From: Psammoneis japonica
Lineage: Eukaryota
Direction of reading: 5' to 3'
Assembly (NCBI GenBank): GCA_008632985.1
Contig: QPGO01000180.1
Coordinates: forward strand, 35,332 to 99,331
DNA length: 64,000 nt
Within the stretch, counting starts at the first letter, position 1. The number at the start of each line of letters is the position of its first letter. A program made the position numbers and the translations under genes. Below are positions 27,191-64,000 of the stretch, piece after piece. The notes beneath the pieces are model-generated. The model saw only the letters and a list, made by a program, of their open reading frames with translations. It ran no database searches and was not told the origin of the DNA.

Positions 27191-27199
27191 GATCATTTG

Positions 27200-31780: not shown

Positions 31781-31782
31781 TG

Positions 31783-35568: not shown

Positions 35569-36564
35569 TCAAGGAATAAATACTACAGGCATGCAACATT
35601 CAGGCGGGCATTCATCACCTACAAACATTCCATCACAGTAGCCTGGCTGGTCACCGATGTAACCGCCCAAGACAATTATCGGGCATTCAGGGCCTCCCAT
35701 TGGCCCATCACAAGGATATGGGCCGTCTATTCCTATTGTTCCGCCAGGAGCAACCAGGAAGCGGTGTGTCTTAAAGTGGGGTTCCGAAAGCGCCGAGAGA
35801 AAGCGGTGGCGACGAAGCCTACTCGAGCCGTCGCCATCGCTGCCATCGTCCCCTCCATTACAGCGATTATCTTCCAGTAGAAAACAGGCCCTTCCATTTC
35901 CAATTCTCTTGACGCACACATGAGTCGCGTTGACCGTCACACCATCTCCAGAGAAGACATAATGTCCAAGCACGCTCCCTTGGCTATCAGGAGAGTTGAT
36001 GAGAGGAACAGTCATTGAGGAAGTGGTTCCGGAGAGCAAGGCGTTGTAGAATGTTCCTGCTGTCGATGCAAGCATGCACTGGTAGTCAGGAAACGACTGT
36101 TTAACCTCGATCGTCACAGTGTGACCAACTCCTTCTACCTTGACAATCTCGCCTGAGCTGGTTGTAACTAGATGAGCTTGAGAGTCGGTCTCCGTGTCCT
36201 TTTGAAGCTTCACCGCCAAATAGGCTGTCCCGATGCTTGCCGCGGCGAGCATGACTGTTAAAACGGCGAAGAAAATCATGAGCTTCTTGTATTCAGATAG
36301 CTTTCTCTCAACTGCAAGCTTGTCCTCGACGATCTTGGCAACCTTTTCCTCCGTGAGAAAGCCTCGTTGCGATGTGTCATACCTGCGCATTTCAGATTCT
36401 GTGCGGTCCAGGTAGCCCTTATTGTCACGATCATAGCGCTGAGACGTAACAGACAAGCGATCCGAAGTTCCACGACTTTCCACATCACCAACGCTCGGGA
36501 GAGGCTTAACAACATCATCAACCTCCTCCTCGTCTTTAGTATCTTCTTTGGGATCGTAGTCCAT
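35569..36564 (-). CDS. Hypothetical single-TM protein with EF-hand-like N-terminal repeats and a Cys-rich C-terminus
   Basis: Intact 331-aa ORF with normal Tyr/TpA content; YDRDNKGYLD and YDTSQRGFLT; TM LMIFFAVLTVMLAAASIGTAYLAV. Confidence 0.8.
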   Translation of the reverse strand: MDYDPKEDTKDEEEVDDVVKPLPSVGDVESRGTSDRLSVTSQRYDRDNKGYLDRTESEMRRYDTSQRGFLTEEKVAKIVEDKLAVERKLSEYKKLMIFFAVLTVMLAAASIGTAYLAVKLQKDTETDSQAHLVTTSSGEIVKVEGVGHTVTIEVKQSFPDYQCMLASTAGTFYNALLSGTTSSMTVPLINSPDSQGSVLGHYVFSGDGVTVNATHVCVKRIGNGRACFLLEDNRCNGGDDGSDGDGSSRLRRHRFLSALSEPHFKTHRFLVAPGGTIGIDGPYPCDGPMGGPECPIIVLGGYIGDQPGYCDGMFVGDECPPECCMPVVFIP

Positions 36565-36922
36565 CTCACGGTAGGGCGTTCTCCAATTTCAAGACGAAAC
36601 CTGTGAAATATGGTGACAGGTGAACCCAAAAGCCAAAAGGTGAGCTTGGCTTGAGGATACTTCGCGTGAGTATGGTATCTTGAAGATCGCAACTTCAGGG
36701 ATCTTCTCGGAATTTTCTTGGCATTGGCATCCAGCCATCTGGCATGCATCGGTCATCGGTCATATTGCTGTTTGAGGTAAAAATGTCACAGGGTTCGAGA
36801 GAGAGAGGTGTTTCTCTTTTTTTTTTTTTTTTTCTTCGACAACAATCTTCCGGGTTCCTCTCAATAGTCACGTAGAATCGTACACAAAATAAGTGCTAGA
36901 ATTTACAATCGAGGATCAAAAC

Positions 36923-39200: not shown

Positions 39201-39433
39201 ACTGGATGTTTGCCAATCAAGTTGTTGCCACTCAAAACTGGCTAGAGCGTGCCACTCGATGCGATGCGATGACACAAGCAGAGACCACACTAGACTTGAC
39301 TACCCAACAGACCACACGACACAACTGAGCTAGAGACTGGCTAGACTGTGCTGCTCGACACGACACCACTAGAGACTGGACTGTGCTGCAGGAGATGACA
39401 GCACTCGAGATTGGACATTTGCTTCTTGGGCAA

Positions 39434-40579
39434 TCAACCTTGAATGCTCCAATTCTCCATCCCCGGCACCCCGCATTTTCGAAAGTGCTTCGCTGCTATG
39501 TCGGGAGTTGCTGAAAGCAACGCCCCACAGTGCAAGTCTTGCCAATCTGCCTGATGACCCTCAAGTTGTCCATGGCGACGGAGGCATGCTTCGCACACTG
39601 AAAACATTTTTTCAATTGGATTGAGGTCGGGACTGCAGGGTGCAGTGTACAGCAACCTCGCGTTCTTCTTTTTCTCTGTCAATCGTTTGATGCGACGGTC
39701 AAAGTGCGTCGATGCGTCATCCATCACTGCCACCGAATTTTTCTCTCCTTTTTCACAGTCACCCAGCTGTGGTGCCAAATGTGTTTCTGCCCATTCATAA
39801 AATCGGTCTGAGTCCACAGTTCCTGCTGCTCCCCTGACGGTGTCACAAGCTTCAACAACAAACCCATCAATGTTGCAAGCTGCAAGGCATGTGCAGCGCA
39901 CTGCATCCTGGAACCATTTCTTCAAAACAAGGTCTTCGTTGCGCACCCCCCAAGCCCGACGGCGTCTGGCAGCATTCTTGTCTTTGTGTGTCTTGTCGCA
40001 AAAGATCACTTGACATGGGTCGAAAACAAAAAGTGCCAAAGCCACCTTGCACTCATGTCGGAGTCGCTCGTTTCTCTCCCTTGCAACGGCAGCGTGTGTC
40101 TTTAGAGAGCATCCCAATTTGTCATGAAGGGCTCTCCAGACAGTGGACGGATGAAACAGAGTTCCAGTTTCAATGCACAGATCGTGGACAAACTCATCAA
40201 GATCATGCTCAGGATTGCGCTCAAGAATCTTTCGAAGGGCTTCGACGTGCCTTGGACGAAAGTGCCGTCCTCCTTGCCAAGCCCCAGCAGACCGTCTCAA
40301 AAGTCTTTTCCACTCTCGTGACGTGTCGAATGGTGGTTCTCCATAAAAGAGATGGTGCTTGCACCAACGCCGGAGTTGACGTTCGCCAGTGCGAAATGTC
40401 CTTGCGCCCTGCCTCAGCACGGCGGCGAGGCTTGCCGTGCCTGCCATCAGTTGGACCTGATCAACAATGTGTGCAATGGCATCTCTTTGAGTCGTTCGGG
40501 ATGCCTTTCCAAAAGCAAGCCCTGCTGGAGAGAGCAATGTGATGAAAAACGCGAACAAACGGACCAGCTTCATTGCCAT
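39434..40579 (-). pseudogene. IS630/Tc1-like DDE transposase with mutated motifs
   Basis: HTH region (FHPSTVWRAL); IFCDKTH (cf. DET), VMDDASTH (cf. DNA), APCSPDLNPIEKMF (cf. PYSPDLNPIE). Confidence 0.88.
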
Positions 40580-40749
40580 TGTTTCTGATCTTGTGGTGGC
40601 TGTTTCTCAAAATCTAGTGCTCATTTTGTGTGCGATTCTACGTGACTATTGAGAGGAACCCGGAAGGTTGTTGTCGAAGAAAAAAAAAAAAAAAAGAGAA
40701 ACACCTCTCTCTCTCGAACCCTGTGACATTTTTCCCTCAGACAGCAATA

Positions 40750-41950
40750 GAGGACAAATGCTGTGTTTTGGCTCAAGACAGAAAAGTGTTGAAATCTTGT
40801 TCCTGAGACATGTGAACGCTTCGCACATGAAGATGATTGTTGCCAAAATGAGCAACCAAAGGCAAAGCACCACAAGCCAAAAGAGAGGTGCTCCAATGCC
40901 TTGTGTTAAAAAGCAGGCCCTTCGAAGAATTGCAAAGTCGTCAAACGCCACCAGTGCCATTGCTCCCGACCATCCCATGACTGCTCCAAACATGAGGAGG
41001 ATGCTCCCAAGCCGACGGTTGCGATTGACACACGCAAACCAAAATGAGTCCAAGAGGGTTTCAAGTTCCATCCCTTTGTTGTGGGATGCTTTGTGCGTGA
41101 TGGGGATTGTTGCCAAAACAAGCACAAAAGGCAAAGTGCTGCAAGCCAAAAGAGAGGTGCTCCAATGCTTCATGATGAAAAGCAGGCCCTTCGAAGAACT
41201 GCAAAGTCATCAAACACCACTGGCGCCATTGTTCCCAACCATCCCATGGCTGCTCCAAATGTGAGGATGCTCCCAAGCCAATGGCTGTGATTGACGTGCA
41301 CAAACCAAAACGAGTCAGAGAGGGTTTCAAGTTCCATCCCTTCATCACGGGACGCTTGGCACGTGACGAGGATCATCACCAAAATGAGCAACCAAAGGCA
41401 AAGCACTGCAAGCCAAAAGAGAGGTGCTCCAGCAATGCCTCGCAACAAAAAGCAGGCCCTTCGCCAAATTGCAAAATCATCAAACACTGCCAGTGTCATT
41501 GTTCCCGACCACCCCATGACTGCTCCAAACATGAGGATGCTCAAGAACCCCAGCGTGTGCACAAGGGCACGTCCAGCTGCAGTGTTTGGCGTGAAATTTC
41601 CATGACCAACAGTGGTCACAATTGCAAAACAAAAATGTGCCCCAGCTGCAAGATGCACTTCACAAGGCTCGCTGCCAATGCCACTTTGTGTGAGCCTCGA
41701 GGAACGTCATGTTGTCACCACAAAGAGCAACCAATCGAAAGCAATCATGCATCCAAGCATCAAATGCACCATGATGGTGGACTGCAATCATTGTGCAAAA
41801 GTCATTCCATGTGACTTTGTTGAGTTCCATGCAGAGCTGTGATGAACAATTGTCTCGACGCGGTTCTGGCACACCCCCGACCACAACAAGGATGAGACGC
41901 TAGATTGAACACGTCTCACACCCCAACTGCAAGCACAAACAAACAAACGA
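40750..41950 (-). pseudogene. Two-pore-domain K+ channel pseudogene with an internal ~268-bp tandem triplication
   Basis: HFCFAIVTTVGHGNFTPNTAAGRAL (P1, cf. TTVGYG) and SIATVGLG/SITAIGLG (P2); repeat units recur at ~40845, ~41114 and ~41381; frameshifts. Confidence 0.85.
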
Positions 41951-42792
41951 CTCAAATTCACAATCCATGACAGTCCACAATTGTCATGTGTGAGCCATTT
42001 CAGGTGATTGTGTTGAGTCCAAAGTCGAGCTGCTAGCATCATGCACCATCAACGTGCAGTGTGCGGTTCCCACTTCCCGCTGCGTGGTTGCTGAGGACAA
42101 CCCACAATCCACAACTCAATCCACATCACTCACAAAAGCTTCAACGCTTCAAATGATGGAGTGTCAATGCCTTGCTCTGCAACATGACATGACACAAATG
42201 ACTGTGAGCAAGACAAGGGCAGGCATCACCCCCAAAAACATGAAAACACAACATTGCACCACATGGTGCAAGAACACTGCTGAGCACAATGAATTTTCTC
42301 ACCTCAACATCACAATGTGCACATGTCAGTCATGGGATGGGGGTTGTTGGCAGTGTGGAGCCTGTTGTTTTTGAAATGAGCATTGCAGAGACGAGCGCCA
42401 TTTTTGCCGTTGGTGATTTTTGAATTTGTGCTCTTGCATCGTTGGAAAAACAGGGCATGGTCTGACATGCGCAGGGAGAGTTGCAACAAGAAATTCTGCC
42501 CAATTTCCACTTGGCGTGCAGTCTGTCCACACCCAGGCAAAAATCTTGAAATGAAGAAAGGTCCATTGTCCTGCCGGCACTGCACCAAGAAAGATGCAGC
42601 ACAAGTGCATGGGCAGGTGTCCACACATCCACAGTCCACACCACAGTGACTCTGCTGGCCTCATTGCAGAGATCCCCCCCCCTCTTTTGACACAGGCTCA
42701 GTTTTTGACACCCAGTGCCTGTCGTTTGTGACACATGTCACACAGGCAGGCAGGAGGCTTTTTTTTGTCAGGTTGCAAGACCCTTCTTGTGC

Positions 42793-42932
42793 GTGCCACA
42801 TCTCTCATCTCTGCACCATCTGCAAGGTGCTTTTTGCACTGTGAAAACCCTGCTGGGCACTGCCAGTGCTGCCACACCAAAGGGTGTGCCACATCTCTCA
42901 TCTCTGCCCTGTCTGCAAAGTGCTTTTTGCAC
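42793..42932. repeat. Direct repeat pair (~47 bp, period ~93)
   Basis: GTGCCACATCTCTCATCTCTGC...TCTGCAA.GTGCTTTTTGCAC occurs twice. Confidence 0.85.
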
Positions 42933-42937
42933 AGTTG

Positions 42938-44007
42938 AGGTGGTGCAGGCAAAAAGTGGGCCAGATTCCATGCATGCAGAACTTGGCACATTTCTGCACA
43001 AATCACCAAAGTCACCTTGCCAGCCAACTTGAGACATGTTCCAGTGGCACGCCAACCAAAACGTGCACTTCACGAGATTTTTGTGAGGTCTCTGACTGGG
43101 TTTGAACAAGCTTTCCCCACCAAAAGTGTAGATTTGCGCAAATGCAAATGTTTTGCAACACTGACAAGATTCGTGTCAGTGTTGCAATGTCATTGTTTTG
43201 GCACAATCGATGTTTTTTCATTGTTGCGACAAACGAGTTGCAACACAACAAATGATTTTTGCCAAAAATTTTTGAAGATTCATGTGCTGTTGCTGTTTGA
43301 AGGCCAACACAAAATGTTTGTGCACGCATTGTGTGCCACTGGTCTGCTCACACAAAAATTTGTGCAGCACAACTGCTGCTGACATGCAATCGGTGTTGTT
43401 TCCACACAAATGACATGTGCATCGCGGAGACTTGAACGCTGATGAAAAAAATTGTTTGAATGTTCGCACTCTTGCTGAATGTAAAACCCAGAGTGCACAA
43501 GAGTTTTTGTGAACAGCCTTGATGCATGAAGCTCACGCAAATCATGTTCAAAACGGATTGTGTTGTTTTGTCAGGTGTGTCACCTGGGGCTGGAACACGT
43601 CTTGAGCCCTTTCCCGGATGATCACAACTTGGACATTTCACATGACAAAGTGCGCAGACTGCTTGGTTGAACACTGCCCTTCACTTGTTCATTCAGAGAA
43701 GCTGCAAGTTTTCATGCGTTTTTGAAGACACACACTGAGTCCAATCAGAAAGATGCAAAAATCACGACGTTCAAGTTATTTTGCAGAACTGCAGCAAATG
43801 ACTGGCACATGAAAACATGCAGCTTCTCTCAATTTGCAAGTCAAGGGGAGTGCAACCAAACAGTCTGGACACTTTGTCAAGCAAAATGTTCAAATTGCCA
43901 TCATCCATGAGAGGGTTTAAGTTGGTGAGGTGACTTTGGCAATTTGTGCAAAAAATGTGCTGAGTTCTGTGTGCGCAGAATCTGGCCCACTTTTGCACCT
44001 GCCACCT
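42938..44007. mobile_element. Non-autonomous TIR element (MITE-like), ~1.07 kb, ~90-bp degenerate TIRs
   Basis: 42938-43030 (AGGTGG...AAAAGTGGGCCAGATTC...CCAAAGTCACC) is the inverse of 43919-44007; no coding motif inside. Confidence 0.75.
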
Positions 44008-44604
44008 GAAAATCCCGCAGTCAAGGCATCGAGGCCGCAGCAACAAAGTCTCTCACATCACTTGGAACATGTGTTGCAACAACAACTGATGGCATTTGTG
44101 AGCAGAAAAAGTGCACAGCAGCTGCAACAACCGCACTGCTCGAACAAAAAACACATGTCTTCCACTCTTCTTGACTCTTGGAAGTGACACAACAGCATTG
44201 TCATCAAACACCTTTTGGGCATTTGTGCCACTGTCGCCAGTTTCAAAACTGTTGCTTGCGCTCTTTCTTCAAGCCGTTTTTGCGCTGTGTTTGCCAAGAT
44301 GGGCGCCCTGCTCTTCTTCTTTGCTTTGCCAAATGCAGGGTTGTTGCAAGAAGAGCACCCACACTTTGAAAGCAGCATTTTGCCACTGACTGCATCTGCA
44401 AGCTTGGCTCACAGTTTTTAATTGAAGATGCGGCTGCACTGACATCCTCTTTCCCTCCATTTCCATGCTGTGAACAGGAGCCTGTGGCATGAATGGGCAC
44501 CCGTTAAAAACGTTATATCCTCTAAGTGTTGAATTCCGTTCAGATTCCAGCAGATCCAAGATTCCGGGGCAAAAAATCACGTGCAAAGGCCTTTTATTTC
44601 CACC

Positions 44605-46790: not shown

Positions 46791-49018
<2,228 letters not shown>

Positions 49019-49734
49019 CTTTACAAGGTATATCTCCTACTTCTTGGAAGGCGCTGCAATAACTCTTCCTGAAAATCAAACGCCTCACCATAAAACTCCA
49101 AAACCAGCCGCGGATAGTAGCTTCATGATGCGATGTGTGTCGGGCGGTGAGTCCGCAAAGAGTTTTTCGTAGCCAAGACTCTAAGCCAAGCACGGAGAGG
49201 ACCTCCTTGACTGGACCGAGAGTCACCGCGCGAATGTAGTAGCGAAATGGGTTGAAGGACGGACGACGGACGAGACGAGCGGAAACGTGGCCAGCCCAAG
49301 GGATCCCTCATTGTCTGGCAGGATGGGAGACACCATGGTACTGTCGAGGCGTCTCCAAGGAGATGCCAACGATGAAAATTGAAAGGTGTCTTTCTCCTCC
49401 CTGTCAGTCAATAGAAAATCCCTTGCGCGGTCTGCACTCGCGCAGTCGGGAGTGTCTCGTGCATTGGCGCTGTTGTTGCCACGCCATTTCGGCACTGTCC
49501 TGTGGATGCACCTCCCACCTTTCCCATTAATGTTGACTAAGGTCACACCATTTCGGTGCCATGTCATGTGGGCATTGCTCTAAATCCCGATTGGGTCCGC
49601 TCGCAGCGGGGGCCGCTTCGGCGGCCGAGGATTGCCTCACACTCTGGCCTGTTTTGCCACACCTCTCAATGGTGCCTTTCTCACAAGGAGCACATCCTCA
49701 TACACACGGTCTAAGTGCCATTAAAGTCCCACAT

Positions 49735-49929
49735 GGTTGACGTCTGTCAATCCACCTGTCGACTGCACGCAATCGTGCGCTTCAATTTTCAAATTCCGCC
49801 ATCAAAACTCTGCTCGACATTGCAGTCATAATTTTCAGTCAACGACTTTTGCAACAACAACAGCCACTAGTTTACAACCTTGAGCATCAGCTCTTTCGAC
49901 ATCTGCAGTTGCACATTGGTGTGGCAAGT
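49735..49929 (+). repeat. 5' LTR
   Basis: Ungapped match to 56970-57164 with 14 mismatches by manual alignment. Confidence 0.95.
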
Positions 49930-50430
49930 GGTCATCGAGCCCAAACGCAGTGTGCAGAGTCTTCACCAGAGCTGCACCGATCCACCGCGTTCTCGTCGAA
50001 CGCGACAGTCATCTCAAGCCGTCGATCGTCCGTTTCAAACGGAATCGCCGTTCATCGATTCGACAGACCTCTCCAGTCTATTGACGTCAACACTGTGTGC
50101 AGCTGAGCCTCCCTCCTTCATTGATGGGCTCGCACGCATTTTCCCGCCACCAGAGCCAATCCACGGAGCCGGAATCATCATCGTCAAGCGTCGTCATTTT
50201 GGCCGTTGCGATGCCAAACCCGGATTGAGTCGTTTCGAACTCTCCAAGTCTGTGCCAAGTCAAGACCTGCCTCTCACGCTATTCGACAACGATGCTCTTG
50301 TCACCGATTGATTGTTGAGCTTCTGCGGCAGTCTCCCAATGATGCGGCGTCAAGAACTTCATTTTGCCGTTTGTGCTTCAAACTCTACGTAGCTTCAGCA
50401 CCAAGTTCTACGCATTGATTCAAATCCACC

Positions 50431-53400
50431 ATGGCCGGAACGCCGTCAAAGACTCCTTCCAAGACCCCCAAGGGCACCAAGACTCCGCAACAGAGGAGTC
50501 AGACTCCTCAACCTTCTCGAACCGGCAATGGGACACCTGCCACTCCCGCTGGTGAGAACAGCAGTTCCACCACAGGAGCTAATCAACCTCCGCCTCCTCC
50601 AAGGCGTGGAGGGATCCATCCAGAGTGTGTGCAACACATGGGCGGTTCTCCGTTGGATGATGACTGCAAGCCCAAGCTGCCTCGTTCCCACTGCTCAACT
50701 GACCAGTCTCGCGACAAGAAGATTCTACCGCACATCGAACACACTCTTCGCGAAGCTCGAGACAGAACACTCGTCGTCAAGTTTGACGGAAACCTCGAGC
50801 TCACTGACACGACCTCCAACAAGCTCGACCAATCCCACTTCGTTCAAGCTGTCCGCACCCTTGTCAAGGAGCATGGCTTGGAGAACTTCTTCACTGTGAA
50901 GCTTGAGAAGAAGGTTGTGTCGCCATTCGACCATCTCCACTCTTTTACGGTCGACGAGGTGATTGCCGAGCACCTTCATCGCGCCAACGTCGCCAAGGAC
51001 TTCACTGCATGTGACGACTACGAGCACAACGACATCACCCTCTCCCGATTGGTTGTTGAGTCTAGAATCTCACACCGATTCCGCGAGAAGATCGAGGTCC
51101 AATTCGGACATGACGATCTCTTTGAGTGCTGCCCGGTCAAGTCTGTTTGATGATGGCTTTGGATGCTTGCAATGCATCTGCCGCACATGACGTTGCCCAA
51201 GCCGCTGAGGACCTCGATGCTCCATCGCTTGCATCCCACCCGGGTGAGGACATGACTGAGTTCGCTGCCAAAGCTCTCCGTCTCACCAAGCTGCTCCAAG
51301 CCGGGTGTGCGTCACCTGTCGACCTTGGGTCAAGCATTCTCAACAAGTGCCAAAAGACCTCATGTGAGGCATTCAATCGCAAGATTTACACCAAGTTGGA
51401 CAAGGTGTCGACCATGGAACACAAGTGTCGCCTTGGCGATCCCAAGGCGATTGCCGCGGACTCCGACTGTGATGAACTCGGGCCTGCAGCATGCACTTCC
51501 TTTTTGCAGAAGGAGCATCGCTTCTGCGTTGCCGATGAGGATTGGCCCGGACTTTCCACCAAGCTCCCTCAGAGCAACAATGCTTCCAAGACCGGAAAAG
51601 GGGCCTGCAATGCATGTGGTGCTCCGGACCACTGGGCCAACGATCCCAAGTGTCCCAAGTGTGCCGAACGTCAGAAGCGCAAGAAAGAGAAACGTGAGCA
51701 GCGTTGACAGAACAGTCGCAAGGACAACCCGACGGTGCCACCCACCACTGCACCGCCTCCTGCGTCTTCCGTTACGGTTGACACTGTCCCTGCTGACAAA
51801 CAAGCCAAACTCAAGGAGTTGCTCACCAACGAGCCCCATCGTTACACCCGTCCGGCGGACCTGTCCAAACCTGTCGTGAACAAGCATGGTTCGACCACGT
51901 GTTTTTGTGGAAAGTGCACTTGCAAGCACACCGGCATTCAGGGGATGCACACGAATCACAAGGAGTCAGATCATGTTCGCAAACCACCGAAACAAGAACC
52001 ACCTGCGGCTGATCTTACCTCCATTGACGACCCAGATTCGGGCGTCCCACCTGGGCCACCCGCTCAGACTGCTCCAGACCCAACCAATGCGCCCGAGCCC
52101 TCTCCTGATGAGGACGAGCTTGTTTGGACTGGAATCCATTGTTGTGTGATCGAGGACTTGTCTCCTCCCACCCCGTCTGTTGTGCGAGTCTCCTGCAAAC
52201 CTGCTTCCGCATCTCAGAGGGAGCGCCTGCCGGTTGTGGTCGAGACCGTCGAACCTGAAGATGCTGACGACTTCAGCGATTGCTTCAATGCACATGACAA
52301 CCTGTCTTGGGACGATTCCATTGTTGTGTTTCCGCCCACGACTGCTCCTTCATCCAGTGTCCCCACTTCGGGTGCTCCGGCTCCTGCGGCAGAGTTCTTC
52401 TTCGATGCCGAGTCCGGACCCGAGCCCGCGCCGGATCCACCGGTTCCCCAAGCTCACCATCTGTTGCCATGGGATCTCCTCAAGCTCCCGCTCTTTTGGA
52501 TCTCTGCAATGCTTTGGGAAGGTCTCCTGTGGCTCGTCTGCTCCCAGGATGATCCCCCCCCCTCCTCCCTGCCATGAACTTTGCCTCAAGCACCACCCTG
52601 CGCTGCATCGCTGCCCCTGTCGTTGGGGCATGATTGCGTGCGCGATTGCGCTTTGGCATTTTGTGTGCAGCAGCGCTGTCCCTCCCCACCCCTTTCAATC
52701 ATTGGACCGCCTCTCTTCTCAAACATGCGAAGTTGTCTCTGCTCTCGATGAGCGCGTCGATCCATTGCCCGGTGCATTCGTCCAGTGCCATGCTGTCAAG
52801 GTCAGTCAATTCAAATGTGAGTTGGCGTGCTCAGAGGGAGACAAGCAAGACACCGCCACTCTACCTTTCAAACTTTCCAAGTTGATTGACAGGAGTGACG
52901 ACGACGATTTCTTTGATGCGCACACGGAGCTCCCCGTCCATGCGGAATGCTTCTTTGATGCTGATGCCTTCCACGAGTCTGACTGCTCGAGCCCGGAAGT
53001 CTTCAGCATTGCTGACTTGTGTCACGCCCGCTGCTTCATCGACTGCACCAATGCTCCGGAGCTCGCTGCAGAGGATCCATTGGCTTCACCAGCTGTGCGG
53101 ACCTCTGCTGCACTTCGTGCTGTTTCCGGGGAGACCCAACTTTTGCGTCTCGCCGCTGATCCCCAGGCCCTCTTCCACATCGGACCAAGTGATCTCCAGG
53201 TTGTTTTTGACACTGGTGCCTCGCAGGCCATCACTCCTGACAAGAAAGATTTTGATGGTCCGATTGGGCACTGCCGGACCCCGCTCCGCCTTGGCAGCAT
53301 GGCTGAAGGCATGTGCATCACTGGTGAGGGCACCGTCACGTGGACCTTTCAAGCCAGAGAGGGTCACAAAATTGCTGTCCAGCTCCGCGCCTTTCTCGTC

Positions 53401-56400
53401 CCGTCCTCCAAGGTTCGCCCACTTTCTCCACAATGTCTCTTCCATGCAGACGGCATCAAAGGACATTTTTGGGGTGACAGTGAGATTTTCAAGGTTTGTT
53501 TCGTAGACACGCCGGAGTTGACGCTCGAGTGCGACGAGCGCTCCCACTTGCCGGTTGGCTGCGCGACTCTCGGTTCCATCCATGCACCACAAGTCAATTT
53601 GAGCGCCATTGGCAACCCAGACAACCTCAATCTGTCTGCTGGACAGAAGCTTCTCAATGAATGGCATGCGCGCTTTGGGCACTTAAATTTTCCCAAGATC
53701 CAAGCTCTGCTCCGCGGCCATCCATTCGAGGCCATGAAATTCAAGGCAGCATCCAAATGCGACATTCCAAAATGCGACACATGCGAATGTGCCAAGGCTC
53801 ATTGCCGTTCTTTGAAGTCTGCCATTCACAAATCCGACCCCAAGCGCGATGGAGTGTTGAAGGCTGACCATCTCAATCCCGGCCAGTCCATCAGCGTTGA
53901 CCATTTCGAATCGCGTCTCAAGGGCCGCACCTGTGATTCACACGGCAAACCGTCCTCCCAGCAGCATGTTGGCGGCTGTGTCTTTGTCGACCACTCCTCT
54001 GGTTACATCCACGTTGAACACCAAGTCGGTTTCTCCGCTGTCGAGACTGTTCGAGCGAAACAGGCACATGAGACCATGGCAATGGGACACGGCGTGATTG
54101 TCCAAACTCACCTCACTGACGGTGGCGCTTTCAAGGCCAACCAGTTCGTTTCCCACATCCACAACTCCCAGCAACACATGCACTTTTGTGGTGCCAACGC
54201 TCATCATCAAAATGGTGTTGCGGAACGCTCCATTTGGTCCATGTCCAACATGGCTTGCGCCATGATCCTCCATGCTTCGATTCACTGGCGTGGCGGCATC
54301 GACAGCTCTCTGTGGCCCATGGCAGTGCACTGTGCTGCCCACATCTGTGATGCCACTCCCGGCGCCCATGGTCTGTGTCCCGCCAACATCTTTGCTGGCT
54401 CCACCGTCCCACGCCACCGCCTCCGCGATCTCCATGTTTGGGGTTGTCCTGTCTGCGTCTTGGATCCCAAATTACAGGAAGGCAAGAAACTTCCCCGTTG
54501 GCAGCCGCATTCTCGGCGTGGTGTCTTTCTTGGACTCAGCAATGTTCACATCAGTGAGGTGCCATTGGTCCTCAATCTCAACACTGGCTCCATTGCTCCC
54601 CAGCACCACGTCGTGTTTGACAATCTCTTCACCACGGTTGCTTCGATCGCGAGGGAGAGCGAATCGCCGGATCACTGGGAAGAATTGTGGTTGGAGAATG
54701 CCACTCAAATTCCCTTGGACTCGTCCGATGGACCGTTGTTCCTTCAAGACGACTGGCTCACTCCTGCTGAACTTGAACAGAAACAACAACATGAGACCAG
54801 GGAACGCAATGTTTGCACTGCACTTCAACAGCAGCAGAGCTTGCCGAAACCCACTGAGAAACCAAAACCTGCAGCAGATCCTTTGCCATCTCCAAATCCA
54901 CCGCCATCCACACCATCGATGCCAACAACTGCAGTTGATCCATCACCGACACCACCGCCACAAACACCGTCGCTTCAAAACCCATCATTGCCGACACCTC
55001 CAGTTGACGATCCTCCACCTTCAGTCGTGTGTCCGCCGTCTGCTGCTGGCAATGGTCCGGCACGTCAGTCCCATCCATGACTGCTCCAGTCCCACCTGAA
55101 CCCTCAACCACGACTGAGACACCAGGGGTGCGCTGATCCCAACGGTCGAACAAGGGCACGCACACAACTGCTTGTTTCGCTGATGAAGCACATCTGGCTT
55201 CTGTCATCCCTGACGATGTTGGAGACAACAGGCTCAGCTTGCCCATTTGGCTGAGATCCAGACTGACTGTGATTCGGGTGTTTTGGATGTTCAGGACCCG
55301 CGGATCTACGCCGCTGAGGTCAAACGCGATGCGGATGATCCAAACATTCGCGAGGCTCTCTCGGGTGATTTTGCCAAGCAATGCATTGAAGCCATGAAGA
55401 CGGAGGCATCTGCTCTTGTCCATCGTAAAACGTGGCAATTTGTGAAATGGGAGAAGTCAATGAATTTGCTCAAGTCCACATGGGCATTCAAGTTGAAATG
55501 ATTGCCGGATGGCACGCCGCTTGAGTTCAAAGTGCGATTTTGTGTCCAAGGAGATCTGCAAAAAGAGGGAGTTGACTGCTTTGAGACCTGCACTCCAGTG
55601 GTCCAATGGTCGACTGTCCGTCTTGCATTGAGCACTGTCCCCACAAGAAGGATGGACCACCCGTCAGGTTGATTGCACCAACGCTTTTGCGCAGGCCGAG
55701 ATGATGGAAGACGTTTGTGTCGAACCACCCAAGTGTTTCGCTCCCAGCTCGGGATCCAATGTTGTCTTGAAGCTGCTCAAGAGTCTCTGCGGTCTCAAGC
55801 AAGCTCCCAAGTGCTTCTTTGACAAGCTGCATGAAGGATTGTTGGAACGAGGATGGACCCAGTCGCAAGTCGACCCGTGCCCATTTTTCAAGGACGGTGT
55901 GATTTGTGCAGTCTGTGTTGATGACACTGTCCTCGCTGGCAAGAATGGAGCCGCTCTAGAAAGTGAGATCAAGGCTCCAGGCATCCAAGACGACGAACAA
56001 CGCCATGCATTCGAGTTGCGAAATGAGGGAGAAGTTGGTGACTTCCTCGGTGTCAAGATTCGCAAAACCGGACCCAAGGAATTCTTCCTTGCCCAGCCTG
56101 GACTCATTGATGAGGCCCTCAAGACAGCTGGTGTGGAAGATTGCCGCTCTTCTCCCACTCCCAGTGCTGCCTCTCCATGTCATGCGGATAAAGAGGGAGC
56201 CGAATTCGACGAGAACTGGGACTGCCGTTCCGTCATCGGCATGTTGATGCATCTGTCATCCAACTCCCGACCAGATGTCTGCTGCGCCACGCATCAAGCC
56301 GCCCGCTTCTCATGTGCTCCCAAGCATTCTCATGCGATTGCGGTGAAGCATGTTCTGCGACACTCACAAGGTGCCAAGGACAAGGGACTCTATCCATGCC

Positions 56401-56962
56401 CTGGCGACAACGAATGTGTTGGTTGTTTCGTTGACGCCGACTTCGCCGGCCTCTGCGGTCACGAAGACACTCAAGATCCGGTCAGCGTCAAGTCCCGCAC
56501 CGGACATGTCATCTTGCACTGCGATTGTCCTGTTTTGTGGGTTTCTAAGCTACAGACGCAAACAGCACTCTCCACTGTGGAGGCCGAGTGCCTTGCTCTG
56601 TCGGCTGCGATGCGCGACCTGATTCCGATTCGTGAAATTTTGAAGGAATTCAAGTGTCATGTTTTCGGTCTCACGGATTACAAGACCCCTGCCACCACCA
56701 AGTCCAAGGCCTTTTCAGATGTAAAGGATGGTGCGATCCCTTCTTCAGCCTCAAGTTTGCGAAAATGGCCAAGTTGTCTCCACGCACCAAACACATTGGC
56801 ACGCCCTGTCATTGGCTCCGCACCAAGGTCGAGGCTCTTGAGATCCGGATTGAGCCTGCAGGAACTGATTCCCAGTTAGCTGATCAATTTACGAAGGGAC
56901 TCATTGCTGACAAGTTTGAATCTGGTCGGCCAAGTCTCTCAGGCTGGCAGCTCTGTGGTTGA
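50431..56962 (+). pseudogene. Copia gag-pol with stops and frameshifts
   Basis: Zn knuckle CNACGAPDHW, protease VVFDTGAS, WHARFGH...CDTC, integrase SVDHF/HQNGVAERSI, RT STWAFK/KVRFCVQGDLQ/CVDD, RNase H FVDADFAG/LSTVEAE/QLADQFTK. Confidence 0.93.
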
Positions 56963-56969
56963 GAGGGAG

Positions 56970-57164
56970 AGTTGACGTCTGTCAATCCACCTGTCAACTG
57001 TGCGCAATCGCGTGCTTCAATTTTCAAATTCCGCCATCAAAACTCTGCTCGACATTGCAGTCATAATTTTCAGTCAACGACTTTTGCAACAACAACAGCT
57101 GCCAGTTTGCAACCTTGAGCATCAGCTCTTTTGACATCTGCAGTTGTACATCGGTGTGACAAGT
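56970..57164 (+). repeat. 3' LTR
   Basis: Follows the PPT directly; followed by TSD CACAT. Confidence 0.95.
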
Positions 57165-57743
57165 CACATGGGCAATGTCAGCATGGTTTTTCAATCCATT
57201 TGCTGCTCTTTTTCATGGGTGCCCATTTTGGCCCCTCTTTTTTTGCCGCTTTTCGGCCATGGTCATCGCCTTTCCTCTCGGCGTGTCAAATTTTTTCCTC
57301 CTCTCACCGAGATGTGCCATGTGCAGATGTGCATGTTCACATGCTGTGTTGCATTGGATGCACCACAGTTGTTTGGCCGATGCTGATTGTGTGCACACAC
57401 ATTCATTCTCGGGAGGGTTCAGTCAAAACGAAAATTGTCACCACGTTTTTCGGAGTTTTCTCGTTTTCCCGCAAAATGCGTGCAATCACGATGATGAATG
57501 GTGATGGAAACCGACCCGTCACATGGGACCAAATGTTCGATTCATCCTTGTCTTCATGCATTGGACAAGCGTGGGAATCGGGTGGGGTTGCGTTCGTCGG
57601 AACCGACACAATGTTGGTCAACGCTTGTCCTTCCTGAGCAATTTCACATGCTGGTCGCTTTCACTTTCCAGCGTGTTTGTTCTCACTTTTCCTTTTTTCA
57701 AGATTGGACGAGCCTTTGTTTTCCGACATTCTGTTGTTCCACC

Positions 57744-59948
57744 ATGAGCCAAGCCCATGTTGCTGCCATCAACCATGGCAAGCTGTCTGCCCTCCTCATG
57801 GGCATGCTCGAGTTTGTCTCGATGACGGACCGTGACACCCAGAAGGAGCTTCGTGACCATGTCTTTGCGACTTTGGACCTTTTCTGCATGGTCCACAATC
57901 GCAAGATCACGGTTGTGGTGAAACCTTGCCCCAGGCAGCACACTGATGGGAACTTGAGGTGGATTGGGAGCCTCTCGGATGCGATCGGTGAGGTCATTCT
58001 GATGTCCGGCCGTTGGACTTGTTTCCAAGGCCACGTCACCACTTTAGTTCCCCAAGGCGCCGTGGATGCTTGCCACCTGCCCAAGTGTGAACTAAGCCCT
58101 GACGAAATTGACGGTCCTGTTGGCAACGACGGGACTGGTGACCCTGCGTCGATGGGTCGTCTCCATTTTGGGAATCCTGCTGGACCGGCCGAGCGCCCTG
58201 CCATTGTTGCGCTCCCGCTTTTCCCACCATTCCCTGTGGGCATTGCTCTTCCCATTGACTTCGACCCGGCAAATCCCCCAGCATCCCTTGCTGCTAACTT
58301 TCTGCTTGGAGCGGCATGGGCTGAGGGTGTCGACTGGTTGCTGCAGCACAACACTTCTGTCTCCGTCATGGAAGGTGGCCCTGTGTTTGAGCAGACTGGC
58401 TTTGCTGTCATTGATGAATTCTCTGGTCTAGAGGTCTACAATCTCGATGACAACGATGTGCAGATGCTCCAGCCTCTAACGGATTGGTGTGCTCTAGTCA
58501 AGAGCACGATGGATGCCTTTGCGAATGAGACTTGGAGGCAGCTCGGTGGTGACGAGCCTGCGCATGCACAAGCTCCTGCCGCTCCAGCTCAGGGCACCAA
58601 CGGTCTGGTCCCAAACTGTGCCATCAACATCCCTCGCCAGGATTCGAAGAAGGAGTTGGATCAGAAGTTGAGGGCACGTGATGTTGGTTGCCGCTGGTCT
58701 CCATGTGCGTTCCGAGCGACTGCTGGCACTGGTCCGGAAGACCTGCCCATGATCATTGTCGGCGAGCTTGCGGACAATGCAGTCAAGATCCTACAAGACA
58801 CCTCGGCAGCTGATGCCAACCGAGACCTTGCGGACCTTGTTAAGATGGCTGTTGTGGCTTCGGCTTGTGGTGACAGTGGTCTTGATGCTGGAGTCGACTG
58901 CAAGCACACCATTGTCAACAAAGCCCACGCGGATTGTTTCCGCGGCTTTGACGTGGTTGCGGAGCCTCCGCAGTGTGGCCAGGCTTCTTGCCACATGAAG
59001 TTGTCAATCCTCCCCTTCCTTCTGCCCCAGACTGCATCATCTTCCTTTGCCAGCCTTGAGGAGGAAGGAAGGACGCTCCATCGGGTGCTTGCTGATGGAT
59101 CGGACTGCAAGATCCCCGACGACGTGAAGGCAAGCGACCTTTACATCCAAGGGAGGATGGATGCCACCAGCGATCTGTGGTCGGCACTGTGCAACTTTCG
59201 TTGTGTCTTCGGCTGTTGGATCAAAGACTTTGATGATGCCGAGTCATGGCAATCATTGGATGCATGTGCGAAGGTCCTTTGGTCGCATCCTGGCCACACG
59301 TGGCTCAAAAACCTTGAGGACCCGAAACCAGTCGTTGCCAGCATCCTGGATGATTTCCAGACCATTGTCAAGGTTTATTTCGAGATTGGGGACTCCCCAT
59401 TGTGCCGCCAGGTGGTTGAAACCGAGCGCCCACTGAGCCATCAGATTGCGAAGGACGCTCATGCTTCAGTTGAGTCCCTCATCGCGGATCTCAACACGGC
59501 CATCACACGGGGCAAGCCTCTCACCTTTGCTGAAGCGTCTACATTGGCCCTTGTCCCTCTGGGCAGTTCCATGTTGCCCCTTGCTGGAGACAAACAGGAC
59601 AAAAAGACCAAGTCCGGTCAACCTCCTAAGAAGAAGCCGCGCACGGAGGACACGACCGACAGTGCGGCCGAGCTCTGCAAGGCAATGGGCATGCTTGCTT
59701 TTTCGGGAACGAGGTGCCCTCCTGCCTGTCCAGTCTTTTATAAGAAGAATGGATCAGACCAGGAGGAACGTGTTTGCATGCATTTTTGTGCTGAAGGATG
59801 CTGCTGCAAGTTCCCTGACTGCCCGAAGCCACACCCATCACCGGTGTCCAAGATTCCGGAGGCAAAGCGAGACGCCTTTTGCCAATTTGTCCGGGACACC
59901 CAGGGACTCGAATTCGTCCCAGGAAAGGGCCCAGATGGTGCGTCATAA
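57744..59948 (+). pseudogene. gag-like ORF1 of the YR retrotransposon with a C-terminal CCCH-like finger
   Basis: Long ORF, likely start MSQAHV; ends CMHFCAEGCCCKFPDCPKPH; lies directly upstream of RT. Confidence 0.7.
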
Positions 59949-60070
59949 ACACATTTGAAGCTCACAGTTTCTGCACTGCCCCTGTTGCTAATTCAGTGTT
60001 GTTTTAATCTGTGCTGTCAATCTTTTGACCAGTCTGTGTTATCCCGGATGGGTCAGTTTGTCTCATTGCA

Positions 60071-62932
60071 ATGGACACAGACGACGACAGCAAACCGGAG
60101 CATGAAGTGGTAGATGCAGAGTCAGAGGAGGCCGGAATGAGCATTGAGGATGCTGTTCCAGCCACAGATGCTGCGCTTGCCACGTCTGTGACGGAACCAC
60201 ATCCGAGCCTACGTCGGCTTGCGGTTGCGCCGACGGCACCCCTCGAAGAGAGAGAGTTGGTGGAGCCATTCCCGACTTTTTCGTTGGTTCATAAGAAGAA
60301 GGGTGCGGATTTGATCCCAACCATCAACAATGGTTTCAACAAGGCAGCTCATGAGCACTTTGCCAATGCGCAACTGTCTCCAGGGGTTCGCGCCAAGTTG
60401 GACCAAAAATTCGGCAAGGAAAATTTGAACCAATGTTTTGTGTCCAAAGCCTGTCTGCGTCATGTGCTGTTGCCACTCTGGAAGTCGGGACACCTGTCAC
60501 CACCAATCAAATGCATGAATCCTGCGTCTGCCAGCATCCATTTTGGTGAGGATTGGTTGAATTTTGGCGCCGCTGTCCCGGAAGTGGCTGAGTTCATGGG
60601 TCCAGTCCAGGAGTGCGGCGATGTTGACTTCAACCCGTTGCGTGGCTGTCCCAAAGGGTGGCAAATGGAGGCTAAAGTCAACACTGACCAAGCAGCAATG
60701 ACAAGTGCAGCACTGTTGCACTTCGACGGAGACCCGGCGAATCTGGTCCGCTGGGTTGGCGGACCACATGTTGGCGAACACCGCGACACAGACAGAATCC
60801 TCCGTTTCACACAAGGCCGAGTCCCCAACGAAACAACAGCACATGTCCGCCGCATCTTCCAAGACGGGGCGCCAGCGAAATGCAGTGCTGCTTTCTCGGA
60901 AGCCAACTTTCAAGCAGCCTTGCGCCATGGCAACCACAAGACTGTCGACGCAGATCCTGCAAAGACATCGTCAGCAGTTGTCAAGGACAATCGCAAGGGG
61001 TTCACATTGCCATTTGACCAGCGGCTCGTGCCGCACTTGCTGAATTGCCATCTAACTCCACAAGGAATGGTGGATTTGGACAAGAAGCACAAAAGCCCGC
61101 ATCCAATCTTTGACAGCACGATGCGCCCGACACCGGGCGGCATGGCAATCAACGACACGCTAGATCTGGAGAATGAACCTCCAATCACATTCCCATCAGC
61201 TGAAATGGATTTCATGGTGTGGATGTGGAACATGAGGATCTCATGCCCACATGAGGAGATTTGCCTGGGGACGATGACGTGAGTGGTGCGTTCCGTAACA
61301 TGAAGCATCACCCGAACCTCGTCGGCATGCACACCAGCGTCCAATGCGGACCAGGCATCCTGCAAATGGGTTGCACCTTCGGGGACAAGACAAACCCGCT
61401 TGACTGGGATGCCATTGCAAATGCAAGGCAATCCCCAGCTCAACATTTTTGGCGTGTTCCCAATGTCGTCGAGCCAGCTCATCAGTGCCTGCCGACCATG
61501 TCGTTTGCAAAGCAGCCCACTGCCAAGGAGATTGCATCCTTTTCTCCCGCGGAAGCCGATGCTGTTAACCCTGGAGTCTTCCTTGATGACCATCGTCTCC
61601 CGCCAACCTGTGAGCACCATGTCGACGACAACTTCTGCGGCGACATGCGCGACTTCATGGAGCGGACCGTCGCGGCGAGTGCTTTGGCGGTCTGTGTCCC
61701 ACTGAGTTTCCCTCGGAACGAGACACCTGATTTCCTCAGCAAAGAAAAATTGGATGCGCTCCATTCACATTTGCGAAGAGCCTTGGGCCGGCATTTCAAC
61801 TCAAGAAAGATGTCGGTGGGCATGTCACCGCACAAACGGGAACAGTTCCTTGAAACACTCCATGAGTGGCTCGGCAGACAGCGATGCACACTGCTGGATG
61901 CAGCAAACCTGCATGGTCAATTTGAATCCCATGCAAGGCATTGCCCATGGGCTCGACCCCATTTTTTTGCACTCCAGAACTCCATGGGTTGAGCGATGGT
62001 CATCCAGTGCACCATTGTGAAGCGCATCCTCGAGCGCCAAAATTTGAAATCAAATTTTGAAACTCAACTGCCGAGCCAACTGCGGAATGGGCTGCCGAGC
62101 TTGCTCATGCATGCCCAAGCCCAGCTCCTCTACAAGTTGAAAATTGAGACCCCGATGACCTCCGATGCATTGGACATGATCAAGGAAGTGACATCATACA
62201 TCCAATCAACTCCAGACCCATGGTCGGGCACCGACAGGATGCGTTGTCCCTCGGGTGCCCCACTGCCAAGCAATTGGAGACACCAGCAACGTCGGCGGAG
62301 GTGCCTGTTGCTGCAAGCTCAAATTTTGGTTCGCTTTTCTTTGGGGACCAAAAATCGCAAAGGGTCTCAGGCTGCGGAAGTCAACGGATCTGGACTGTGT
62401 CCATGTCAATGCAGTGGAGTTCATTGTCATCATGCTCAAGTTGGCAGCCATTGTCGTTTGCATGGAGAATGTGACTCCAGAACGGGCGCATGAGTTCTTC
62501 CGGGACGGCATCGTCCCACTGCATCTGGTCATCAGAAGTTGCTCAGATGACATGGCATCAGTCAACCGGACAAACAAAGCCACTTCGAAGTCGCCACAAG
62601 GGCAGCGATTCATGTGGGTTTTTTGTGAATTGCTGCATCATGCGCGTGCAAACCCAAATGGCGATCACATCTTTGGCAACGAGAATTTTGTCACAGATGA
62701 CATCTCACGACCTTCTGTTTTTGCCCTGATCTCGAATCGTCACCATTCTGAACAGCTGTTTCGGAAGCATCCCTTTCTGAAGACCTGGGACTGTTTCCAG
62801 CCGAGTCAAGAGCTCTTGCAGCTCCTCTCCTCACAGCTGTCTGCCAAGCACAGAACGGCACCCCAGATCCCAAGCAACTTGGGACAGCTTGTTCCCACCA
62901 AATCCATTTCCTCCACTTTTACAAGAGTGTGA
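60071..62932 (+). pseudogene. RT-RNase H of the YR retrotransposon, frameshifted
   Basis: PIFDST, DDVSGAFR, TFGDKTNP, HHVDDN; RNase H IGDTSNVGGGA, HVNAVEF, SDDMAS, DHIFGNENFVTDDISR over four ORFs. Confidence 0.88.
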
Positions 62933-64000
62933 GGTGGGATCTAGAAGATCCGGAAATGACTGTGGTTGGCAAGGACCTGAAACATTGCCAATTGGTGCCA
63001 GCTGTGCATGCATCACATCTGGCAACCGGGGCCACCCTGCACTGTAAAAATGTTTCTACAGGTGCCATCAAGGAACACATCCACAACGTCTCCACGTTCG
63101 TGTCTCTGTTTGGTTCCAACTGTTGGGACGTCCGCAAGGACAACAGTGTGGACACCAAAATGGGATGGATCCTCAGGGGAGCATTTGATGAACTCCAACG
63201 GCACGACAAGGTCCCGGACCGACGTGAGTCGTGTGCATTGCTTGTGCAACAACATGCAACTTCAACAGCAGCAGACATGCGAGAAACCGACCCCGACGCA
63301 ATTGAGGTGGTCCTCGCTGACTGGTTTGAGATCGGCCCAATGGCAGGCCTGTGCAGTGTTGAGTGGGCACAGTCCAATGACCACTCAGACCTGGAGAATC
63401 CCAGGCTCAACATCTTCAAGGAGACATGCGCGTTCTGCCTCGATGATGTGCGCATTGAGACCAAGGACAAGCACCAACACTCTGGGGCTGATTGCCTCAC
63501 CCCCAAGCAAGATGACATCGAGAGCATGTTTGTCACATTTCGAGACCAGAAGAACCAGCAACATGGCGAGGAGTGCCAGCTCGCCTTGAACCTCACGGGC
63601 ACTCACGACTTGGTCAAGCCAATGCTTTGCGTGATCCAATGCTTTGCACGGGTCCGTGGTGAAGATGACAAAACCTGCCCCCTGGCACTCTGTTTTGATC
63701 CCAAGGAGAACAAGTGCCGCCTTGTGACATCCAAGAAAATTGAGGCCCGCGTGCGCCAAATTGCAGCAGAGGTGTGCCACCTTGACCAGGTCAAGGATAA
63801 AAAGGCTGTCAGCAAATGGTCAGCACATTCCCTCCATGTTGGAGCCTGCAACATCCTCCATGAGATGAATTTTAGTGCTGAGCAGATTAATCAGCTGCCA
63901 AGATGGCGATCCGACGCCTTTGTGGCGCACCTCCGTAACTGCTTGGGTCTCTCTCAGGCCCATTGCCGAGCCCTCGATAAAGCGGCACCTGTGCCGTTCT
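62930..64000 (+). pseudogene. Tyrosine recombinase with mutated catalytic residues, open to the window edge
   Basis: Manual translation: AGLCSVEW (cf. GLR.SE), SAHSLHVGA (cf. HSLRVGA), RWRSDAFVAHLRN (cf. ..YLR). Missing from the ORF track because there is no stop. Confidence 0.9.

Follow-up and report, generated by a model that had tools for sequence, protein, structure and literature searches.

Context-specific transitions in the long terminal repeats of a Ty1/copia retrotransposon and in TpA-depleted islands of a Psammoneis japonica contig

The two long terminal repeats (LTRs) of a retrotransposon are copies of a single template at integration, and differences between them must therefore have arisen afterwards, in chromosomal DNA. 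A 64,000-nucleotide stretch of DNA from Psammoneis japonica (GenBank assembly GCA_008632985.1, contig QPGO01000180.1, positions 35,332 to 99,331 of the forward strand; termed ‘the window’ below, with coordinates counted from its first letter) contains a Ty1/copia retrotransposon at 49735-57164, with 195-bp LTRs and a 5-bp target-site duplication. An initial annotation of this element, made from its letters, had claimed that its two LTRs record an unusual mutation spectrum, imposed after insertion on each copy independently. The locus thus raises the question of which process (or processes) altered the two repeats, in which direction, and on what kind of DNA.

The answer put forward here, to which a probability of roughly 0.85 is assigned, is that the element inserted with identical LTRs and was then altered, as chromosomal DNA, by two context-specific processes acting on silenced mobile DNA. 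The changes have a definite direction and dinucleotide context, fall on both strands, postdate integration and are confined to sharply bounded transposon domains. The faster of the two processes would convert the A:T pair of TpA steps to G:C, giving TpG or CpA according to the strand that is hit, and would have removed some 85-95% of the element’s TpA; the slower would convert CpG to TpG or CpA, and would have removed some 20-30% of its CpG. Each LTR would have been struck independently, yielding 13 transitions at pyrimidine-purine (YpR) steps, including two ‘doublets’ in which one copy reads CA and the other TG (the same palindromic step having been hit on different strands).

Differences between the two long terminal repeats

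The LTRs lie on the forward strand at 49735-49929 (the 5' copy, with three TpA and nine CpG steps) and at 56970-57164 (the 3' copy, with two TpA and eight CpG steps), and are recovered in a repeat search as one long direct repeat pair, 49736-49929 and 56971-57164 (194 nucleotides, 93% identity). Alignment followed by a position-by-position comparison, in which the first base (G at 49735, A at 56970) is counted, gives 14 differences in 195 positions, all of them transitions, without a single insertion or deletion. Thirteen of the 14 lie inside YpR steps, the exception being the pair 49924/57159. These are the figures that the initial annotation had reached by manual alignment (it spoke of 13 differences at ‘TA/CG-type’ sites), and the three examples that it quoted are all present as written, as differences 3-4, 7-10 and 12. 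YpR steps occupy 106 of the 195 LTR positions, which gives a binomial probability of 0.0025 for at least 13 of 14 differences falling within them; the probability that all 14 are transitions is 0.0034 at a transition:transversion ratio of 2:1, and 0.044 at 4:1 (the ratio found among copies of the family).

When the dinucleotides of the two copies are paired, six steps read CG in both and one reads TA in both, while the remainder are CG/TG (four), CA/CG (one), CA/TA (two), TA/TG (one) and CA/TG (two). Five of the 14 differences are thus plain CpG decay (CpG paired with TpG or CpA). A fit of two independent processes to these counts, with per-copy losses of 0.29 for CpG and 0.60 for TpA, predicts 1.64 CA/TG doublets (two being observed), of which 1.12 would derive from TA and 0.52 from CG. 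The ancestor of the two doublets was accordingly likely TA rather than CG, as had been proposed at the outset, although a CG ancestor is also possible at these steps. Under the inferred polarity the 5' LTR lost TpA at two steps and CpG at two, the 3' LTR lost TpA at two and CpG at three, and each lost one strand of both doublets; one difference is left unexplained. The claim that the changes were chromosomal, followed integration and were independent in each copy is thus borne out: there was one insertion, its target-site duplication is intact, its LTRs differ, and each holds about half of the changes.

One example offered in the initial annotation is less secure. The first LTR base is indeed G in the 5' copy and A in the 3' copy, and a T at the end of the target site, placed before an original A, would have created a new TpA for the process to remove. 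Base 57170, however, is G, as is base 49735, so that a 6-bp duplication flanking 194-bp LTRs with 13 differences is an equally valid parse of the same letters. The example is consistent with the process but ambiguous, and is suggestive only.

The consequence for dating was anticipated correctly. The Kimura two-parameter distance between the LTRs is 0.078 with all sites counted, 0.141 for YpR positions alone and 0.011 for the others, and the age of the insertion is therefore overestimated about sevenfold when all sites are used, with a single non-YpR difference as the baseline. A similarly indirect estimate of the rate sets the per-copy TpA loss (0.60 in the LTRs, and about 0.95 at 21 conserved tyrosine columns of the copia proteins, described below) against one change in 89 non-YpR positions, and yields a roughly 100-fold excess with a wide error. 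The TpA process would thus outpace ordinary substitution by about two orders of magnitude, and CpG decay would do so by about one, and LTR-divergence dating in genomes of this kind would be inflated several-fold unless YpR sites are masked.

Direction of change and its confinement to islands

A reading frame free of TA cannot encode tyrosine, and positions at which tyrosine is conserved among homologs therefore test the direction of change. For this purpose each protein was aligned with homologs taken from the head of its list (60 of 120 for the reverse transcriptase, 60 of 120 for the integrase, and 37 of 61 for a DDE_3 transposase encoded elsewhere in the window), and a column was called a conserved tyrosine column where tyrosine was present in at least 70% of the aligned homologs. 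The copia open reading frames (ORFs) contain 0.1-0.5% tyrosine, with histidine and cysteine raised, as compared to a median of 3.3% tyrosine in the 120 listed reverse transcriptase homologs. At the 29 conserved tyrosine columns of the three transposon proteins, the window encodes cysteine 16 times, histidine five times, tyrosine twice and another residue six times. The integrase part contributes ten of these columns (Cys 4, His 2, Phe 2, Leu 1, Tyr 1), the reverse transcriptase part 11 (Cys 6, His 3, Phe 1, Ala 1) and the transposase eight (Cys 6, Asp 1, Tyr 1). Among the replaced residues is the tyrosine that precedes the catalytic VDD of the reverse transcriptase (the motif named YVDD), where the element encodes cysteine.

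Across the conserved columns of these proteins there are 118 mismatches, of which 47 are single-step changes from TpA to CpA or TpG and 15 from CpG to TpG or CpA; none is a change from CpA or TpG to TpA. The rest comprise 12 other transitions, 21 transversions and 23 cases with two or more changes. Nearly all of the single-step A:T to G:C changes (47 of 52) are located at TpA, and both strands were hit, with 31 changes from TpA to TpG and 16 from TpA to CpA on the sense strand. The loss of CpG is visible in the same way at arginine, where 18 conserved columns of the integrase include four that now read cysteine, two histidine and one glutamine. Since 47 TpA losses stand against no gains, and since conserved tyrosine codons have become cysteine and histidine codons, TA and CG are the ancestral states and CA and TG their products. 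The initial annotation had regarded TA as ancestral rather than derived, and had named an LTR family consensus as the means by which that view might fail; put instead to coding sequence, the view holds.

The same losses are evident in bulk composition. The ratio of observed to expected TpA is 0.08 in the interior of the element (which has 35 TpA in all of its 7,430 bp) versus about 0.55 in genic DNA, and the corresponding CpG ratio is 0.81 versus about 1.0; CpA and TpG are enriched, at 1.4-2.1, and the GC content is 0.54 in the element versus 0.48 in its flank. Four TpA-depleted islands with sharp edges are found in the window, the genic remainder of which stays at about 0.55, and both the copia and the DDE_3 elements lie inside them. 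Together the islands hold 139 TpA in 31,861 bp, as compared to 1,263 in the remaining 32,139 bp. The domain to which the copia element belongs runs from its 5' LTR to the end of the window (49735-64000, with an observed/expected TpA ratio of 0.03-0.20 per kb against about 0.55 in genic DNA); TpA steps occur at 49701, 49712 and 49722, just outside the left border, and there is none from 57148 to 58044. A second island (26193-34914, 8.7 kb), called older, has lost both TpA (0.00-0.12 per kb) and CpG (0.03-0.39 per kb, and 0.03-0.15 in most kb windows), and contains the longest TpA-free stretch, of 1,779 bp (28825-30602). A third (37018-44418) carries the DDE_3 transposase gene (39437-40606, minus strand) and a set of 270-bp tandem repeats (40835-41542), and the fourth is short (13994-15465), with two TpA in 1.47 kb and CpG at 0.22.

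That these borders matter is apparent from a pair of paralogous segments, 3 kb apart and 75% identical, one of which (31783-32156, forward strand, 374 bp) lies in the 26193-34914 island and the other (35344-35722) in normal DNA. The island copy has two TpA and the normal copy 21. Where the normal copy reads TA, the island copy reads TG five times, CA seven times, TA twice and something else four times, and the reverse case does not occur. Because one paralogue was hypermutated and the other left untouched, homology alone is no trigger, and targeting follows the borders of the domains. The 270-bp tandem units, which are non-coding, carry the signature as well: they differ from one another by 57 YpR transitions, 12 other transitions and seven transversions, and display 19 CA/TG doublets versus 10.7 expected under a model of CpG loss only.

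The base that follows the step also appears to matter. When the frequency of each TpA tetranucleotide in the islands is divided by that in normal DNA, survival is lowest for ATAC/GTAT (0.006) and ATAT (0.01), and highest for CTAG (0.29) and CTAA/TTAG (0.23). The ratio of TA followed by a pyrimidine (TAY) to TA followed by a purine (TAR) is 0.49 in the islands versus 1.24 in normal DNA, and the products TGY and RCA are enriched. TA before a pyrimidine has thus, tentatively, been lost more than TA before a purine, on the assumption that the transposons began with host-like tetranucleotide use. Such a preference, acting on tyrosine codons, accounts both for the greater number of tyrosine-to-cysteine (16) than tyrosine-to-histidine (five) replacements and for the 31:16 excess on the sense strand, and it provides a testable ‘fingerprint’ of the enzyme. 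The survival of CpG in the islands is likewise flank-dependent: ACGA/TCGT (0.48) and ACGT (0.52) survive least, CCGG (1.12) and GCGC (0.79) most.

Competing explanations and known systems

Several points weigh against the reading of two targeted processes, or narrow what it can claim. The LTR pair by itself would look identical if CA had changed to TA, or CA to CG; the 14 LTR sites are not polarised singly, their direction being taken from elsewhere in the window, and the difference at 49924/57159 fits neither process. Adjacent pairs of differences are not rare by chance (about 0.9 are expected among 14 differences in 195 bp, by our own estimate), and the use of the CA/TG doublets as stand-alone proof of polarity was dropped on that account. 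The baseline rate is that of one difference in 89 non-YpR positions. The classifier that assigned polarity at conserved columns takes present-day neighbours as the context of a change and gives priority to a TpA or CpG label if several single steps are possible (no such case was flagged for the reverse transcriptase and the integrase; the output for the transposase came without this flagging). An 816-residue ORF in the right flank of the element has too few conserved tyrosine columns to be informative, its five reading Trp 2, Tyr 1, Cys 1 and Ala 1, with no clear signal. Finally, although the fitted losses in the LTRs resemble the depletion of the interior, which is consistent with an element that was unmutated at insertion, some of the interior TpA could already have been lost beforehand, had the element that was mobilised in trans been a defective copy.

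The explanations that dispense with a TpA-directed process altogether fare poorly. Ordinary neutral decay, combined with CpG methylation in a family that was never rich in TpA, would leave the TA-involving differences to chance; five of the 14 LTR differences are indeed plain CpG, and transitions outnumber transversions 4:1 across the family, but the direction of change contradicts this account, since 21 of the 29 conserved tyrosine columns (the catalytic-loop tyrosine included) read cysteine or histidine, 47 of 52 A:T to G:C changes sit at TpA, one stretch of 1,779 bp has no TpA and the homologs have a normal tyrosine content, all of which makes it highly improbable. A process of the fungal type, repeat-induced point mutation (RIP), would account for transitions confined to YpR steps in repeated DNA, and resembles what is seen here in that it hypermutates chromosomal DNA by transitions within a dinucleotide context, disabling transposons and exaggerating the divergence of their LTRs. 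RIP, however, makes TpA from CpA, lowers GC and mutates both homologous copies, while in the window TpA has been destroyed (to 0.08), GC is above that of the surroundings (0.54 versus 0.48), one paralogue is spared, and none of the 118 changes is from CpA or TpG to TpA; this explanation, or any other based on C to T changes at CpA, can be set aside almost entirely.

It is scarcely more credible that the differences arose before integration, by editing of retrotransposon RNA (in the manner of ADAR) or cDNA (in the manner of APOBEC). The preference of ADAR for a 5' U (bioRxiv 10.64898/2026.01.13.699255) and the sense-strand excess of A to G over T to C (31 versus 16) would suit such editing, and the ADAR and APOBEC hypermutation described for retroelements similarly consists of deaminase-type transitions with a neighbour preference (PMC4866542). 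Changes of that kind, which affect a single strand, are nevertheless copied into both LTRs, which excludes them for positions at which the LTRs differ; moreover, both strands were hit, a DNA transposon and non-coding tandem repeats share the signature, and the TAY preference explains the strand excess. A comparably small probability attaches to the suggestion that the two LTRs come from different copies of the family, brought together by recombination or gene conversion, such that their differences are divergence between copies. The family is multi-copy and diverse, with 1,071 matching contigs in a public sequencing run, many of them 80-95% alike, and yet the target duplication, which unequal recombination between elements normally breaks, is intact on both sides, the 195 bp contain neither an indel nor a transversion, and the counts fit independent decay at interior rates.

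That same public run bears on whether TpA and CpG steps of silenced DNA, if they carry modified bases, were simply miscalled as CA or TG. The run contains 0.49 of the 31-mers sampled from the stretch; its library type is unrecorded, and since it may derive from the source sample itself it is not fully independent. Two other runs of the same sample contain next to nothing of the stretch, which is no evidence of absence. Identity is 99% or higher in 243 of the 1,071 contigs that align to the stretch, and among the family contigs transitions occur at 874 places and transversions at 219. The 40 rows listed of 1,101 substitution rows correspond to 34 events, none in an LTR: 15 in which the assembly reads CA or TG and every run contig reads CG, six CA/TG doublets, eight transversions, one with TG in the assembly and TA in the contigs, one TA in the assembly, one CG in the assembly, and two other transitions. 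The 15 CG events are what a sequencing or assembly artefact might produce, but contigs omit rare variants of a multi-copy family, so that private CpG losses would be absent from them; and for TpA such an artefact predicts hundreds of cases of TA in the contigs versus TG in the assembly, as compared to the one among these 34 events. Together with the number of closely matching contigs and the share of 31-mers present, this renders an artefact very unlikely.

A different matter is the chemistry by which TpA is lost, and here an alternative with the same pattern and the same timing deserves a more serious hearing, although it remains the less probable one. Mispairing of a modified thymine (for example of the hydroxymethyl-uracil type) or of a methylated adenine, or else error-prone repair at TpA, would leave the same letters; the enzyme cannot be identified from the window, where T to C and A to G at TpA are one event seen on two strands, and a symmetric base modification would fit the fact that the two palindromic steps are lost from the same domains. 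Against this alternative, the adenosine (A34) that tRNA adenosine deaminases modify follows a uridine (U33), and the strict 5' T of the process described here may be likened to that context. The authors of the one closely comparable study also favour deamination, as a hypothesis only (bioRxiv 10.64898/2026.01.13.699255). The most likely chemistry for the faster of the two processes proposed here would be that a TadA/ADAT-like enzyme deaminates adenine in DNA, turning it into inosine, and for the slower the deamination of 5-methylcytosine, with targeting most likely by a chromatin or small-RNA mark rather than by sequence homology.

Methylated-CpG decay of that kind would explain the CpG part of the pattern only. 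Changes from CpG to TpG or CpA are confined to the transposon domains (15 polarised events and five LTR differences), as is expected of it, the 15 listed events at which this copy reads CA or TG and the other copies CG point the same way, and diatom transposons are methylated; such decay, however, cannot remove TpA or raise GC. One might go further and regard the two losses as the work of a single targeted defence system, with either a dual adenine/cytosine deaminase module guided by chromatin or a single mark to which the two activities are drawn; its bearer would be a diatom-like lineage remote from the chlorarachniophytes. This is a speculative and rather improbable proposal; were it true, an ‘inverse RIP’ by which invading DNA is stripped of TA and CG would be an old and widespread feature of stramenopile, alveolate and rhizarian (SAR) algae.

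The closest precedent is a 2026 preprint on the chlorarachniophyte Bigelowiella natans, in which mutation-accumulation lines acquired 231 new mutations across two integrated viral regions, 230 of them A to G or T to C and all of these 230 at TpA, at rates about 1000-fold over baseline; TpA-depleted coding sequences in that organism are enriched in DDE endonuclease and reverse transcriptase domains, and its authors propose, without proof, adenine deamination by an ADAT2-like enzyme (bioRxiv 10.64898/2026.01.13.699255). The hypermutation of integrated nucleocytoplasmic large DNA viruses and virophages in that organism and the process described here both convert A:T to G:C at TpA, giving TpG and CpA; both act on foreign or mobile DNA in the chromosome, within bounded regions, and with a bias toward GC that is opposite to normal mutation. 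Three of the features by which the Bigelowiella process may be recognised are present in the window: A:T to G:C change confined to TpA on both strands, bounded regions of mobile DNA (seen in these 64 kb) and action after integration, as the LTRs differ at TA/CA and TA/TG steps.

The two cases also differ. Ordinary transposons are hit here and integrated viruses there, and TpA loss is near saturation here (0.02-0.1) versus a Rho of 0.45 in the viral region there. The same domains lose CpG here as well, and a preference for a 3' pyrimidine is seen. The rate in Bigelowiella comes from new mutations and that in the window is inferred from sequence alone. Genes here are compact and apparently intron-free, and those of Bigelowiella natans are intron-rich. 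Term searches found no mention of CpG, LTR or trinucleotide context in the text of the preprint (bioRxiv 10.64898/2026.01.13.699255), and no discussion of dinucleotides or mutation spectra in that of a paper on diatom copia elements (PMC2806351); a literature search for TpA loss in the transposons of diatoms or other organisms returned only the Bigelowiella preprint.

The window holds a new instance, probably in a new lineage, of a type of hypermutation of which there is one earlier description. To this it adds that ordinary transposons are saturated, that CpG decays alongside TpA, that a flank preference is seen, and that an LTR pair serves as proof of post-integration action. That pair is an internal clock, absent from mutation-accumulation data, from which it can be read that the changes followed integration and that both copies were hit independently. 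If confirmed genome-wide, the pattern would establish a second lineage with DNA-level, TpA-directed A-to-G hypermutation of mobile DNA.

The element and its surroundings

The assignment of the element to Ty1/copia follows from its parts, all of which lie on the forward strand. It is flanked by copies of CACAT at 49730-49734 and 57165-57169, a duplication of the 5 bp that is typical for Ty1/copia, next to which stand the two direct LTRs. A 239-residue ORF in the gag position (50431-51150) has no family match and 0.4% tyrosine. The protease-integrase part of pol (52150-55080, an open frame to a TGA at 55078) matches Pfam gag_pre-integrs and SH3_retrovirus, with homologs up to 58-59% identical and a composition of 0.1% tyrosine, 6.0% histidine and 4.7% cysteine. 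The reverse transcriptase-RNase H part (55632-56879, stop TAG at 56877) is in a different frame from the integrase part and matches the RVT_2 family (PF07727, E = 6.7e-13) from profile position 94, with 411 homologs, the best of which is 59% identical. The domain order is that of copia elements, with gag_pre-integrs and the SH3-like integrase domain (52180-55080) upstream of RVT_2 (55701-56879). A run of purines directly before the 3' LTR (56961-56969) is, by its position, the putative polypurine tract.

Because pol is interrupted by a frame break between 55078 and 55632, and because the reverse transcriptase diverges from its homologs past about residue 374 (the last 40 residues or so having no match), this copy of the element is dead. 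No second copy of it, or of its LTR, is present within the 64-kb window. Its LTR termini are atypical in lacking the usual TG...CA, since they start with AG (GG in the 5' copy) and end with GT, and the terminal inverted repeat (49735-49741 and 57158-57164) is imperfect. Among the 120 integrase homologs listed, the sole eukaryotic one that is named by organism is from Fragilaria crotonensis, which as a lead only points to diatoms, and one other is labelled as a bacterial metagenome. Homology searches will miss transposon proteins that have lost their tyrosines.

On the left, the 460 bp next to the element (49240-49700) already have a TpA density about 3.5-fold below normal, despite the three TpA within 35 bp of the LTR, perhaps because the process spreads outward or because a further old element ends there. 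In one contig of the public run (depth 33.5) the element is missing, and 26 other letters link 49674 to 57164. Compared with the left flank, this contig shows TA/TG changes and changes of the CA/TG type; the bin of the right flank has a depth of 227, and that flank may be repetitive. The contig represents either an empty allele, in which case the insertion is polymorphic, or a paralogue of a flank that is itself repeated. On the right, the 816-residue ORF (57498-59945, forward strand) lies in TpA-depleted DNA and has 258 distant representatives at E <= 0.001, of about 750-800 residues and 25-30% identical over their full length. Two of ten such relatives scanned in Pfam have a C-terminal CCCH zinc finger and nothing else, and the ORF may encode an unclassified mobile-element protein.

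Elsewhere in the islands, scans of long ORFs against Pfam matched none of three in the 26193-34914 island, which may derive from an old transposon or from an integrated virus, and among 24 island ORFs the sole matches were the DDE_3 transposase and part of an ion-channel domain. The transposase gene belongs to a 4-kb element (36763-40749) bounded by 142-bp inverted repeats of 94% identity, which also has a 693-residue ORF without a family match; its interior is TpA-depleted, and its left inverted repeat still has eight TpA. The ion-channel fragment lies on the minus strand across the 270-bp tandem repeats (41173-41706), where a frame matches part of the potassium-channel domain Ion_trans_2 (E = 8.6e-8) and may be the remnant of a channel gene, possibly viral. 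DNA that is free of TA can have neither TAA nor TAG stops, only TGA, and long ORFs consequently occur in all six frames (48 of at least 80 residues in the 9 kb from 49000 to 58000), so that gene finders would over-call false long ORFs in it. The genic DNA of the window includes six adjacent, closely packed and apparently intron-free ORFs, one of them of 1,428 residues, and a dehydrogenase gene whose nearest Atlas protein cluster is composed mostly of diatoms, an observation that is offered as a lead only.

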